64,000 nt of DNA from the NCBI RefSeq assembly GCF_051903065.1, contig NZ_CP178438.1; one strand, written 5' to 3'. Below, in pieces: positions 3,857-8,944 of this stretch; position 1 is the first letter of the stretch; every line of letters begins with the position of its first letter. The position numbers and the translations under genes are program-made. A model generated the notes under the pieces. The model had not been told where the DNA came from. It saw nothing but the letters and a program-made list of their open reading frames with translations, and did not search any database. This DNA comes from Escherichia coli (GTDB lineage Bacteria; Pseudomonadota; Gammaproteobacteria; Enterobacterales; Enterobacteriaceae).

Positions 3857-4510
3857 CTTAAGAAGTCCGTCGGTCAGGGGGAGCATGAACTCTCCATCCT
3901 CACCGGAGTTGAGCTGGTTGTCAAACGTGGCGAGACCATCGCGCTGGTGGGCGAGTCGGGATCGGGTAAGTCAACCTTGCTGGCGATCCTCGCCGGGCTG
4001 GATGACGGCAGCAGTGGCGAAGTGAGTCTGGTGGGACAACCGCTACATAATATGGACGAAGAAGCGCGGGCAAAGTTGCGCGCGAAGCACGTCGGCTTTG
4101 TTTTTCAGTCATTTATGCTAATTCCTACCCTTAACGCGCTGGAAAACGTCGAGCTTCCGGCGCTGCTGCGCGGTGAGAGTAGCGCGGAAAGTCGTAACGG
4201 AGCGAAAGCGTTGCTCGAACAGTTAGGGCTGGGTAAACGTCTGGATCATCTTCCGGCACAGCTTTCCGGCGGTGAACAGCAACGAGTGGCGCTGGCACGA
4301 GCCTTTAACGGTCGACCTGATGTGCTGTTTGCCGACGAACCCACCGGCAACCTTGACCGCCAGACCGGCGATAAAATTGCCGACCTGCTGTTTTCCCTCA
4401 ACCGTGAGCATGGCACCACGTTGATTATGGTGACCCACGACCTGCAACTGGCGGCACGCTGCGACCGCTGCTTACGGCTGGTGAACGGGCAGTTGCAGGA
4501 GGAAGCATGA
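3824..4510 (+). CDS. ybbA: ABC transporter ATP-binding protein YbbA
   Basis: 228-aa ORF; Walker A GESGSGKST, signature LSGGEQQR; stop overlaps ybbP start. Confidence 0.9.
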   Translation: MPAENIVEVHHLKKSVGQGEHELSILTGVELVVKRGETIALVGESGSGKSTLLAILAGLDDGSSGEVSLVGQPLHNMDEEARAKLRAKHVGFVFQSFMLIPTLNALENVELPALLRGESSAESRNGAKALLEQLGLGKRLDHLPAQLSGGEQQRVALARAFNGRPDVLFADEPTGNLDRQTGDKIADLLFSLNREHGTTLIMVTHDLQLAARCDRCLRLVNGQLQEEA

Positions 4511-6921
4511 TTGCACGCTGGTTCTGGCGCGAATGGCGTTCGCCGTCGCTATTAATTGTCTGGCTGGCGCTAAGCCTGGCGGTGGCCTGCGTGCTGGCGC
4601 TGGGCAATATCAGCGATCGCATGGAGAAGGGCTTAAGCCAACAAAGCCGGGAGTTTATGGCGGGCGATCGGGCGTTGCGCAGTTCGCGCGAAGTGCCGCA
4701 AGCATGGCTGGAGGAAGCGCAAAAGCGCGGCCTGAAAGTCGGCAAGCAGCTGACTTTCGCCACCATGACATTTGCAGGCGACACACCGCAGCTGGCGAAC
4801 GTTAAAGCGGTGGATGATATCTACCCGATGTATGGCGATCTGCAAACCAATCCCCCTGGCCTGAAACCGCAGGCGGGCAGCGTATTGCTGGCCCCACGCC
4901 TGATGGCACTGCTTAACCTGAAAACGGGCGACACCATTGACGTGGGCGATGCCACTTTGCGGATTGCCGGAGAAGTGATTCAGGAACCGGATTCCGGTTT
5001 TAACCCCTTCCAGATGGCTCCGCGTCTGATGATGAATCTGGCGGATGTCGATAAAACCGGAGCCGTGCAGCCGGGGAGTCGGGTCACCTGGCGCTATAAA
5101 TTCGGCGGCAGCGAGAACCAGCTCGACAGCTATGAGAAATGGTTGTTACCTCAGCTTAAACCCGAACAACGCTGGTACGGTCTGGAACAGGACGAAGGCG
5201 CGCTGGGGCGATCGATGGAACGCTCGCAACAGTTCCTGCTGCTTTCGGCGCTTCTGACCTTGCTGCTGGCAGTGGCAGCAGTGGCGGTAGCGATGAATCA
5301 TTACTGTCGCAGTCGCTACGATCTGGTGGCGATCCTCAAAACGCTGGGGGCAGGGCGAGCGCAACTGCGTAAGCTAATCGTCGGTCAGTGGTTGATGGTG
5401 CTGACGCTTTCAGCCGTTACCGGTGGGGCGATAGGCCTGTTGTTCGAAAACGTGTTGATGGTGCTGCTCAAGCCCGTTCTGCCTGCTGCACTACCGCCAG
5501 CCAGCCTCTGGCCATGGCTATGGGCGCTGGGCACCATGACGGTCATCTCGCTGCTGGTGGGGCTACGACCATACCGCTTGTTGCTGGCAACGCAGCCTTT
5601 ACGCGTATTACGTAATGATGTGGTAGCGAACGTCTGGCCGCTGAAGTTTTATCTGCCGATTGTCAGTGTGGTGGTTGTGCTGCTGCTCGCCGGATTAATG
5701 GGTGGCAGTATGCTGCTCTGGGCGGTGCTGGCGGGCGCGGTAGTACTGGCTTTGCTGTGCGGTGTGCTGGGCTGGATGCTGCTGAATGTACTTCGCCGCA
5801 TGACGCTGAAATCGCTGCCTCTGCGCCTGGCGGTTAGCCGCCTGTTACGTCAGCCATGGTCAACGTTAAGCCAGCTTTCGGCATTTTCGCTCTCCTTTAT
5901 GCTGCTGGCACTGCTGCTGGTGTTGCGTGGCGATCTGCTCGACCGCTGGCAGCAGCAGCTACCTCCAGAAAGCCCGAACTACTTTTTAATTAACATCGCC
6001 ACAGAACAGGTAGCACCGCTAAAAGCGTTCCTCGCGGAACATCAGATAGTCCCGGAATCGTTTTATCCGGTGGTGCGGGCGAGACTGACGGCGATTAACG
6101 GCAAGCCGACAGAAGGCAATGAAGATGAGGCGCTCAATCGCGAACTCAATCTTACCTGGCAAAATACGCGGCCCGATCATAATCCGATTGTCGCCGGTAA
6201 CTGGCCGCCAAAAGCCGATGAAGTGTCGATGGAAGAGGGGCTGGCGAAACGCTTAAACGTTGCCCTCGGTGATACCGTGACTTTTATGGGCGATACCCAG
6301 GAGTTCCGCGCTAAAGTGACCAGCCTGCGCAAAGTGGACTGGGAAAGTCTGCGGCCTAATTTCTATTTTATTTTCCCTGAAGGGGCATTAGACGGGCAAC
6401 CGCAGAGCTGGCTTACCAGTTTCCGCTGGGAGAATGGCAACGGCATGTTGACGCAACTCAACCGCCAGTTCCCTACCATTAGCCTGTTAGACATTGGCGC
6501 GATTTTAAAACAGGTCGGTCAGGTGCTGGAGCAGGTAAGTCGGGCGCTGGAGGTGATGGTGGTGCTGGTCACCGCCTGCGGTATGTTGCTGTTGCTGGCA
6601 CAGGTGCAGGTGGGAATGCGTCAGCGTCATCAGGAGCTGGTGGTGTGGCGCACACTCGGTGCGGGGAAAAAACTGCTGCGTACCACGTTGTGGTGTGAGT
6701 TCGCCATGCTTGGGTTTGTTTCCGGCCTGGTGGCCGCAATTGGTGCGGAAACGGCACTGGCAGTGTTGCAGGCGAAAGTGTTTGATTTTCCGTGGGAGCC
6801 AGACTGGCGATTGTGGATTGTTCTGCCGTGCAGCGGTGCGCTGCTGCTGTCGCTTTTCGGCAGCTGGCTGGGTGCGCGACTGGTTAAGGGTAAGGCGCTG
6901 TTCAGGCAGTTTGCGGGGTGA
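4507..6921 (+). CDS. ybbP: ABC transporter permease YbbP (FtsX/MacB-like)
   Basis: 804-aa ORF with duplicated multi-TM permease halves; coupled to ybbA. Confidence 0.9.
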   Translation: MIARWFWREWRSPSLLIVWLALSLAVACVLALGNISDRMEKGLSQQSREFMAGDRALRSSREVPQAWLEEAQKRGLKVGKQLTFATMTFAGDTPQLANVKAVDDIYPMYGDLQTNPPGLKPQAGSVLLAPRLMALLNLKTGDTIDVGDATLRIAGEVIQEPDSGFNPFQMAPRLMMNLADVDKTGAVQPGSRVTWRYKFGGSENQLDSYEKWLLPQLKPEQRWYGLEQDEGALGRSMERSQQFLLLSALLTLLLAVAAVAVAMNHYCRSRYDLVAILKTLGAGRAQLRKLIVGQWLMVLTLSAVTGGAIGLLFENVLMVLLKPVLPAALPPASLWPWLWALGTMTVISLLVGLRPYRLLLATQPLRVLRNDVVANVWPLKFYLPIVSVVVVLLLAGLMGGSMLLWAVLAGAVVLALLCGVLGWMLLNVLRRMTLKSLPLRLAVSRLLRQPWSTLSQLSAFSLSFMLLALLLVLRGDLLDRWQQQLPPESPNYFLINIATEQVAPLKAFLAEHQIVPESFYPVVRARLTAINGKPTEGNEDEALNRELNLTWQNTRPDHNPIVAGNWPPKADEVSMEEGLAKRLNVALGDTVTFMGDTQEFRAKVTSLRKVDWESLRPNFYFIFPEGALDGQPQSWLTSFRWENGNGMLTQLNRQFPTISLLDIGAILKQVGQVLEQVSRALEVMVVLVTACGMLLLLAQVQVGMRQRHQELVVWRTLGAGKKLLRTTLWCEFAMLGFVSGLVAAIGAETALAVLQAKVFDFPWEPDWRLWIVLPCSGALLLSLFGSWLGARLVKGKALFRQFAG

Positions 6922-6929
6922 TGACAGGT

Positions 6930-7250
<321 letters not shown>

Positions 7251-7339
7251 TTTTGGCAATAAATATGAAACCAACTGTCATGTCGGTTTTTTTAAAGGCC
7301 GAAGGTGGTAAACCTTCGGCCTTAGCGACGTTTCCTCAG

Positions 7340-7423
7340 TTATTCAATAAACTGACGGATCAGTTCCAGCAGCGCGATTAGCGCCTTAAGAACGATGAGA
7401 ACTTTATCGAGAAAAGTTTTCAT
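7340..7423 (-). CDS. Candidate type I toxin: 27-aa hydrophobic peptide MKTFLDKVLIVLKALIALLELIRQFIE (DinQ/TisB-like)
   Basis: Not in the ORF track (too short); hand-translated. Strong SD AAGGGAG 6 nt upstream of ATG; single predicted TM helix; an in-frame upstream ATG at 7495 would give 51 aa but lacks an SD. Confidence 0.5.
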   Translation of the reverse strand: MKTFLDKVLIVLKALIALLELIRQFIE

Positions 7424-7648
7424 CCGTTGCTCCCTTAAGGGAGAAAGACAATCACAGCTTACCCTTACGTTGCCTGTAACTATGATTTTCTTCATGTGCT
7501 AGATGAGGACTGCCTCTCTCCAAATTAGAGCACCAGAATCAGCACCACCTGTATCCTGACCAGGACTTAAAAGTACTTTTCCGCACTGCGGTAATCCCTT
7601 GAGGCAGTATCACTACTAGCGTCGGGATTGTATCGCCAACATAGCTGT

Positions 7649-7677
7649 TTGAATATGTAGGCATCCTGACTTATAAT
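7649..7677 (+). promoter_or_regulatory. Near-consensus sigma70 promoter (TTGAAT - 17 bp - TATAAT) for the candidate antitoxin sRNA
   Basis: -35 TTGAAT 7649-7654, -10 TATAAT 7672-7677, predicted TSS about 7684. Confidence 0.5.
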
Positions 7678-7683
7678 TCACTT

Positions 7684-7772
7684 GCTAGATGAGGACTGTT
7701 TCATTTCTGCCCGGAACCACCAAGTCTTGGGCGGAAAAAATAAAAAAACCGACTGTCATGTCGGTTTTTTTA
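7684..7772 (+). ncRNA. Candidate trans-encoded antitoxin sRNA (about 90 nt)
   Basis: Runs from the promoter above to the hairpin plus T-run terminator at 7749-7771; its 5' end (7683-7698 TGCTAGATGAGGACTG) is the exact complement of the toxin transcript region at 7497-7512. Confidence 0.4.
7735..7771. terminator. Bidirectional Rho-independent terminator (A-run, CCGAC-TGTCAT-GTCGG hairpin, T-run)
   Basis: Would terminate selU on the minus strand and the candidate sRNA on the plus strand; a degenerate copy lies at 7267-7293. Confidence 0.6.
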
Positions 7773-7834
7773 TATCTGTATTCTGGTGCAACCATTCTGT
7801 TCTCACGACAATCGCCGTTTCAGAATACCGCCCA

Positions 7835-8944
<1,110 letters not shown>

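Follow-up and report, generated by a model that had tools for sequence, protein, structure and literature searches.

The spacer between the convergent genes ybbP and selU of Escherichia coli holds a type I toxin–antitoxin module of the DinQ family (DinQ-like/AgrB, dql), bracketed by two direct copies of a 27-nt unit that we identify, from its sequence, as the Rho-independent terminator of the module's own AgrB-like antitoxin sRNA. The arrangement is probably explained by a dql-agr module whose own terminator has been duplicated, whose left copy is decaying, and whose presence at this site has long been polymorphic in Escherichia through gain and loss. Published work already covers the family, its mechanism and its chromosomal paralogues. 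The new elements are small: an sRNA terminator duplicated around the module, an apparently strand-asymmetric decay of one copy, and a natural series of alleles with neither copy (S0), one copy (S1) or both copies (S2). No description of the ybbP-selU copy or of its flanking repeat was found in the literature searched. No new kind of system is revealed, and the locus reflects the ordinary biology of a known family.

The window, which is the whole 64-kb stretch of DNA that was analysed, includes the E. coli region ybbA-ybbP / selU(mnmH)-allS. The genes ybbP (4507–6921, plus strand) and selU (7835–8929, minus strand) converge on a spacer of 913 nt, the left part of which is a REP/BIME array with Rfam naRNA4 and ES036 matches at 6959–7242. 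The spacer is also an integration hot spot that has received rhsD and T6SS islands and one IS200C insertion. Features in the rest of the spacer, by position in the window, are:

7251–7820, 570 nt: presence/absence segment, missing where E. albertii and E. coli SCU-484 have the copy-free allele
7295–7772, 478 nt: cassette plus one terminator copy, precisely absent from solo-terminator alleles
7268–7294: left copy, AAACCAAC TGTCAT GTCGG T7 A, with a poor plus-strand hairpin and a minus-strand hairpin that includes G.U
7295–7323, minus strand: toxin mRNA terminator hairpin, GGCCGAAGG/CCTTCGGCC, an inverted repeat that aligns with the K-12 dinQ terminator
7340–7423, minus strand: DinQ-like toxin ORF of 27 aa, MKTFLDKVLIVLKALIALLELIRQFIE; the mechanical ORF extends up to 7495
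about 7430–7436, minus strand: toxin Shine–Dalgarno (SD) sequence, GGGAG
7498–7540, minus strand: AgrB target in the toxin 5′ UTR, with the perfect core GCTAGATGAGGACTG at 7498–7512 and pairing that extends beyond it
7627–7632, minus strand: putative toxin promoter −10 element, TACAAT, placed only by alignment with the K-12 dinQ promoter region
7649–7677, plus strand: sigma-70-type sRNA promoter, TTGAAT-17-TATAAT, from a consensus scan
7685–7773, plus strand: AgrB-like antitoxin sRNA, about 89 nt
7740–7773 (27-nt core 7746–7772), both strands: right copy, a 14-bp A7/T7-extended hairpin

The two copies, AAACCAACTGTCATGTCGGTTTTTTTA at 7268–7294 and AAACCGACTGTCATGTCGGTTTTTTTA at 7746–7772, are identical at 26 of 27 positions and start 478 nt apart. 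The initial annotation had recognized this pair and its single-base difference, and both hold: the sole mismatch is A7273 against G7751. The positions it gave (7267–7293 and 7745–7771) were shifted by −1 and are corrected here. A 27-mer repeat with three or fewer mismatches occurred in none of 100 dinucleotide-preserving shuffles of the 64-kb window, and the window has no third copy. The pair can be extended to 40 nt at 83% identity, but the 13 added nucleotides are A/T-rich and the extension is not significant. The 570-nt segment consists of 17 nt (TTTTGGCAATAAATATG), the left copy, a 451-nt cassette, the right copy and 48 nt (7773–7820), with a boundary that is ambiguous by the dinucleotide ‘ca’. 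Local alignments against shuffles detected no origin for the 17-nt and 48-nt flanks that accompany the copies.

The small ORF, short repeat and sRNA promoter that had been noticed between the copies are all present (the repeat measures 15–22 nt, at 7491–7512 and 7677–7698, with the promoter at 7649–7677), and together they make up a DinQ-family module. Three family features that can be read from sequence are present: a small, hydrophobic, single-helix toxin that matches the DinQ profile, a divergent, trans-encoded AgrB-type sRNA with its own promoter and terminator, and complementarity between the sRNA 5′ end and the toxin 5′ UTR ahead of the SD. The toxin peptide scores 40.9 bits against the NCBIfam model NF041472 (toxin_DinQ), above its cut-off of 30, and 24.5 bits against the DqlB model NF041473, under its cut-off of 35. 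Homologues of the peptide carry PF28061 (DinQ), and RefSeq annotates an 84-nt dinQ CDS at this position. The sRNA scores 53.6 bits against Rfam RF02891 (AgrB; gathering score 40) over model positions 1–84 of 84 and folds at −33.9 kcal/mol (z = −4.9). Its 5′ end is complementary to the toxin 5′ UTR through a 15-nt perfect core (7498–7512 / 7684–7698) that lies inside the 22-nt repeat, and the sRNA/5′ UTR duplex has an energy of −50.8 kcal/mol compared with −25.8 ± 3.2 kcal/mol for shuffles. The putative toxin −10 element TACAAT was not flagged by the consensus promoter scan. Differences among lineages in the toxin ORF are synonymous throughout, which lends indirect support to toxicity of the peptide and its neutralization by the sRNA at this locus.

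A close known relative is the K-12 dinQ-agrA-agrB locus in the arsR-gor spacer, where DinQ toxicity and sRNA neutralization were shown experimentally (Weel-Sneve et al. 2013, PMC3567139). Both loci encode a 27-aa membrane toxin together with a divergent AgrB sRNA that base-pairs to the 5′ UTR of the toxin mRNA. Their homology runs the full length between toxin terminator and sRNA terminator, both included, with ~69% identity to K-12 dinQ-agrA and an identical sRNA terminator stem. They differ in site, in the number of sRNA genes (one at ybbP-selU, two in K-12), in the terminator loop (TGTCAT at ybbP-selU, GCAAA in K-12) and in the lack at ybbP-selU of a perfect LexA box. The motif CTG-N10-CAG does not occur in perfect form in 7500–7700, where the best sites have 1 mismatch in the invariant triplets. 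The module has neither the arsR-gor location nor a perfect LexA operator at the promoter, which are the marks of dinQ proper, the SOS-regulated orthologue of b4613. Because every E. coli genome carries a separate arsR-gor dinQ, with ~69% identity to the ybbP-selU copy, and because there is no perfect LexA box, the ybbP-selU module is best classed as a paralogue (dql) and not as a dinQ orthologue, despite its RefSeq product name dinQ. The dql (dinQ-like) genes dqlA and dqlB were named by Kristiansen et al. 2016 (PMC5066626), who described 14 dql sequences; these DinQ homologues occur on Enterobacteriaceae chromosomes and plasmids, sometimes beside dinQ in the same strain (PMC5066626). In the DqlB-agrB addiction module of pOXA-48, experiments demonstrated that AgrB neutralizes DqlB by base-pairing (PMC12365149). 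The layout of promoter, SD and terminator in dql modules is the same as at ybbP-selU, whereas the plasmid modules have no second terminator copy.

Identification of the 27-nt unit starts from the right copy. A consensus scan finds it terminator-like on both strands, and the Rfam AgrB match closes with it at the 3′ end. It folds at −17.5 (plus) and −16.9 (minus) kcal/mol, with z about −7 to −8, and has the G+C-containing hairpin followed by a U-tract that is typical of a Rho-independent terminator. On the minus strand the tail is U-rich (UUUUUUCCGCC); on the plus strand the T7 run pairs with A7 inside the stem, leaving the tail AUCUGUAUUC. We infer that transcripts from both strands end at the right copy by intrinsic termination, the AgrB-like sRNA from the plus strand and selU/mnmH from the minus strand. 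This working copy is under strong constraint.

Comparison across the family points to the same origin for the unit. K-12 agrA and agrB both end AAAAAACCGAC-gcaaa-GTCGGTTTTTTTAC, and for modules from Salmonella and Yersiniaceae, whose surroundings are unrelated, the end is AAAAAAACCGAC-(attaa / ctcacca / ttcacca)-GTCGGTTTTTTTACGCC. The stem AAAAAACCGAC/GTCGGTTTTTTTA is common to all of these, and the conserved pattern of stem and tails is A6-7 CCGAC ... GTCGG T7 A. Modules on plasmids L089 and L090 share the terminator design alone and have a variant core, CCCGA/TCGGG. The loop varies across all family members. Because stem and tails are characteristic of the family, the repeated unit appears to be the sRNA's own terminator, and both copies would derive from it. 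A similarity of ~14 nt past the terminator between the window and K-12 agrA/agrB was considered and dropped (local alignments against shuffles, p = 0.08–0.99).

The second copy has no counterpart among relatives. In none of the related modules compared, with left ends of the form ..aaatgTTAAAGGCC.., is there a copy left of the toxin terminator; this makes the left copy peculiar to the ybbP-selU locus. The Agr terminator also occurs twice as a direct repeat in K-12 (agrA and agrB), but there both terminators are on the same side of the toxin gene and each ends a complete sRNA gene, whereas at ybbP-selU the second copy stands alone on the far side. The TGTCAT loop was not found outside ybbP-selU, and 10 of 10 metagenome matches to it are ybbP-selU loci. 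A plasmid search for a donor of the TGTCAT-loop terminator returned only distant dql/dqlB modules without the flanks, and plasmid and metagenome searches found no donor context with two terminator copies.

The K-12 pair agrA and agrB, each with the same terminator, raises the question of whether the left copy is a remnant of a tandem dql-agr duplication, produced by unequal crossing-over or slippage, in which the left unit was lost save for its terminator. Type I toxin–antitoxin loci often occur in tandem, the left copy runs straight into the first bases of the unit, as expected of a tandem junction (T7A/AAGGCC), and deletions at short repeats are frequent at this locus. Against such a history, the 17–43 nt left of the left copy have no significant similarity to the Agr body (p = 0.23 in the window and 0.87 in the divergent Escherichia lineage L010), and no partial Rfam AgrB match lies there. 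A candidate Agr-body remnant at this position was dropped when local alignments against shuffles proved not significant. No tandem genome was identified, and a two-unit query is covered 100% by single-copy genomes too. A trimmed tandem array is a rather improbable source of the left copy.

The sequences of the two copies show how unequally they have fared. Among the 13 loci at which both copies are readable, the right copy never varies, and the left copy occurs in three forms: CCAAC...GTCGGTTTTTTTA in E. coli and Escherichia sp. E1V33, and CCGAC...GcCGGTTTTgTTA or CCGAC...GcCGGTTTgTTA in a group of three diverged metagenomic Escherichia contigs (L098, L099 and L105). Since there are three left forms and one invariant right form, the ancestral left copy was probably identical to the right copy and has since decayed independently. 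The ancestral base at the variable position is G, which is seen in the L098 group, in L010 and in all right copies; the A of the E. coli left copy is derived.

The initial annotation described the left stem as weakened, which is borne out for the plus strand: the left copy folds at −6.3 kcal/mol (z = −0.86), which does not amount to a terminator hairpin, where the right copy reaches −17.5 kcal/mol (z = −7.9). On the minus strand the left copy is a weak terminator candidate, with 8 pairs including one G.U and the tail UUUCAUAUUUAUU. This minus-strand hairpin sits directly behind the toxin terminator, and toxin terminator and left copy together form a two-hairpin fold of −29.2 kcal/mol (z = −5.3). 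The toxin hairpin abuts the left copy, so that on the minus strand it is followed by only UUU and then by A7. With only three U after the toxin hairpin, the left copy probably backs up the toxin terminator.

Energies reconstructed for the ancestral sequence suggest that decay has been strand-asymmetric. For the 27-nt core on the plus strand, the energy goes from −10.6 kcal/mol in the inferred ancestor to −4.6 kcal/mol in the E. coli left copy, and plus-strand hairpins of the L098-group left copies are at −5.5 and −6.1 kcal/mol. The minus-strand two-hairpin fold goes from −31.3 kcal/mol in the ancestor to −29.2 in E. coli and to −30.7 and −30.6 in the L098 group. In two lineages, this suggests, the plus-strand hairpin was destroyed and the hairpin on the toxin-mRNA strand was kept through G.U pairs, a pattern drawn from two substitutions (chance about 0.25) together with interruptions of the T-run. 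It also suggests that the left copy may be retained as a distal or back-up terminator, or as a 3′ stabilizer, of the toxin mRNA. The left copy would have begun as a duplicate of the sRNA terminator, placed directly behind the toxin terminator and identical to its source, and would now be decaying.

Natural alleles of the spacer form a series. The copy-free allele S0 has the junction REP-...gtgca/cagaat...-selU, which is exactly common to E. albertii and E. coli SCU-484. It occurs in at least 456 of 5426 complete E. coli genomes and is the commonest cassette-free allele; further B2-type variants exist (e.g., S88). When cassette genomes are aligned to the S0 junction, the matches break exactly at 7821. 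In the solo-terminator allele S1, one terminator lies within a segment of ~95 nt. This allele is present in E. coli PapRG-04-4 and PapM-32-1, which are baboon isolates from The Gambia and have the CCAAC version, and in lineage L010, which has the perfect CCGAC version. The E. coli S1 total is 2–7 genomes, where the upper bound of ~7 reflects the 1333 genomes that match the junction query and the 1326 that contain the cassette interior; a solo-junction scan of metagenomes gave 0 matches. The full cassette with both copies, S2, occurs in ~1326 of 5426 complete E. coli genomes (24%; ~1124 at full length) under the RefSeq label dinQ, and beyond E. coli in E1V33 and the three L098-group contigs. 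In a fourth class, S3, islands replace the whole spacer, for example rhsD in K-12 and T6SS/DUF2931 islands. In Citrobacter, Kluyvera and Pseudenterobacter the ybbP-selU interval holds a porin-like gene and lacks agr, dql and any copy of the terminator. These outgroup genera show the module at ybbP-selU to be, as far as sequence comparison goes, specific to Escherichia. It had been suggested that strains without the cassette should carry a single terminator copy; where the local spacer is kept (PapRG-04-4, PapM-32-1 and L010) they do, with the copy joined to the selU-side flank. The opposite pattern, with both copies around unrelated DNA, was never seen.

The two-copy arrangement is old. Cassette identity between the window and L098/L099/L105 is 96.5–97.1% compared with 92–96.6% for flanking genes, from which it follows that the module evolves more slowly than its flanks. 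A young cassette had been considered on the strength of 99.56% identity between E. coli and E1V33 (flanks 94–98%). This was overturned by the ~3% cassette divergence in L098/L099/L105, and local recombination is the better explanation for the high identity of the E. coli and E1V33 cassettes.

Loss of the cassette can be traced in E. coli. In E. coli the solo terminator has the base of the left copy, the derived A, and the nearest flank relatives of the solo genomes all carry the cassette, spanning exactly 478 nt more. For both reasons the E. coli solo allele is read as a deletion between the repeats from a cassette allele, and at least one such 478-nt deletion event has evidently occurred. The two copies, as direct repeats, would be the substrates for this precise deletion, which would leave a solo terminator. 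The locus also decays through other deletions at short direct repeats, which are common there: one of 108 bp between GATGAGAACT and GATGAGGACT, and one of 186 bp between the two antisense boxes. Recombination between flanking direct repeats can leave a solo repeat, as in solo-LTR-type deletions or in short-homology deletions in bacteria. The likeness lies in the alleles, with two repeats plus insert on the one hand and one repeat on the other, and in the exact loss of a repeat and the intervening DNA (478 nt). At ybbP-selU, however, the repeats are only 27 nt long, they are functional terminator hairpins and not element termini, and there is no element recombinase.

How the cassette was gained is a separate matter. 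The initial annotation proposed that it was acquired by insertion into, or duplication of, a resident selU/ybbP terminator. The solo alleles that this predicts do exist; the remainder of the proposal fares less well, in that the unit is an AgrB-type terminator, the commonest cassette-free allele has no copy and the E. coli solo allele is a secondary deletion. A different reading, target-site duplication by a transposase- or integrase-type element carrying the toxin–antitoxin cassette, draws on the classic transposition signature of direct repeats around an insert and on the use of the spacer as an integration hot spot (rhsD, T6SS islands, IS200C). It is effectively refuted. Neither the 478 nor the 570 nt contains a transposase, an integrase or a terminal inverted repeat, and the only inverted repeats are the terminator hairpins. 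The 27-bp length is far above that of usual target duplications, and the duplicated sequence is of cassette type and not arbitrary target DNA. The same cassette family occurs elsewhere without a flanking repeat, and this arrangement is confined to one locus across 5426 genomes and the metagenome collection.

The resident-terminator proposal, spelled out, starts from an older spacer with a bidirectional ybbP/selU terminator, as in the solo allele, into which a dql-agr fragment was copied so that the resident terminator was doubled. Two microhomology junctions or template switches would be involved, one between TTTA at the terminator end and the cassette left end TTAAAGGCC, the other between AAACCGAC at the terminator start and the 5′ half of the cassette's Agr terminator; a later deletion of 95 nt would have produced the copy-free allele. 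Solo alleles are exactly as this account predicts, and the L010 solo segment is old, ~6.7% diverged from the window like its own flanks, so that the L010 solo allele could be an ancestral resident terminator. The TGTCAT loop, unique to the locus where the loops of other family members differ, fits a resident origin, and the family-conserved cassette ends (..TTAAAGGCC on the left and AAAAAACCGAC on the right) supply the microhomologies needed. The account has costs. Before any cassette was present, the resident terminator must already have had the 8+13-nt stem and tails of the family-conserved Agr terminator, and S0, with its single junction in E. albertii and at least 456 E. coli (B2-type S88 among them), must be a derived state. 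It also requires three events instead of two, and the E. coli solo allele, with its derived A, is a secondary deletion regardless. We consider a resident terminator possible but on the unlikely side.

The more parsimonious path, and the one preferred here, would lead from S0 to S2 by gain of the 570 nt in one step, with later deletions turning S2 into S1. This would make the copy-free allele ancestral, a polarity drawn from a small number of lineages, with no species tree. The path assumes that the incoming DNA already had two terminators, or that a tandem duplication was later trimmed. We give a single gain roughly twice the weight of the resident-terminator path.

A broader proposal is that terminator duplication is how small type I toxin–antitoxin modules move, with hairpins stalling replication and microhomology template switching carrying modules into and out of matching terminators. 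This is a long shot. If it were true, a terminator-bracketed cassette would be a minimal mobile unit that works without an enzyme and arrives already protected from read-through at either end. The natural allele series (none, solo, full and internally deleted) displays gain, insulation, erosion and loss of a module via very short direct repeats. The RefSeq ‘dinQ’ at ybbP-selU appears to be a non-SOS paralogue that occurs in about a quarter of E. coli genomes and is absent from K-12, which matters when dinQ/agrB phenotypes or RNA-seq data from non-K-12 strains are interpreted.

The spacer between ybbP and selU (window 6921-7835), which holds the cassette, is an integration hot spot (loci L004, L007, L008, L011 and L012). 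The rhsD-ybbC-ylbG island stands in place of the entire spacer in K-12, and a T6SS/DUF2931 island replaces all of it in E. whittamii and other strains. Window 6959-7242 is a REP/BIME array, in which the number of REP units differs from strain to strain and falls to zero in the diverged metagenomic Escherichia contigs (L098 group). Rfam matches in the array are:

6959-7001, minus strand, ES036
7005-7082, naRNA4, full match
7105-7183, naRNA4, full match
7206-7242, naRNA4, partial match

The cassette of Escherichia sp. E1V33 (L009) is 99.56% identical to that of E. coli over window 7295-7745, whereas its flanking ybbP, selU and allS have 94.4-98% identity; this difference in sequence identity suggests that the spacer was exchanged recently between lineages by recombination.

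About 200 of approximately 1326 cassettes are short of full length. A recurrent loss of 108 bp between GATGAGAACT and GATGAGGACT (window 7394-7403 and 7502-7511; loci L002, L106 and L107) removes the toxin start codon, its Shine-Dalgarno sequence and the AgrB target. The gene for the sRNA and the two copies of the terminator are spared, and the dinQ annotation persists in some RefSeq records despite this deletion. A different deletion takes out 186 bp between the two GCTAGATGAGGACTG boxes (window 7498-7512 and 7684-7698), so that the toxin 5' UTR is joined to the AgrB body and both promoters are gone, in the following:

L091, O157:H16 strain Res13-Lact-PEA12-26
H189, H192 and H212, further matches

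In strain TB06052 (L108), an IS200C copy of ~705 bp separates the AgrB body from its terminator (window ~7736-7744); because the element inserted before the terminator, its own end hairpin now lies 3' of the sRNA body.

Variant toxins are encoded on other E. coli contigs (proteins P0019 and P0012). One of them, MKTFLDKVLIVLKALIALLELIRQLLNN, is possibly a chimera of dql and dinQ, with a DinQ-like C-terminus; another carries a C-terminal extension of six residues. Upstream of the sRNA, CTGTTTGAATATGTAG (window 7645-7660) has one mismatch to the LexA pattern CTG-N10-CAG and is a candidate site. This candidate overlaps the AgrB-like promoter at its -35 region, and the -35 element of the divergent toxin promoter may be located there too.
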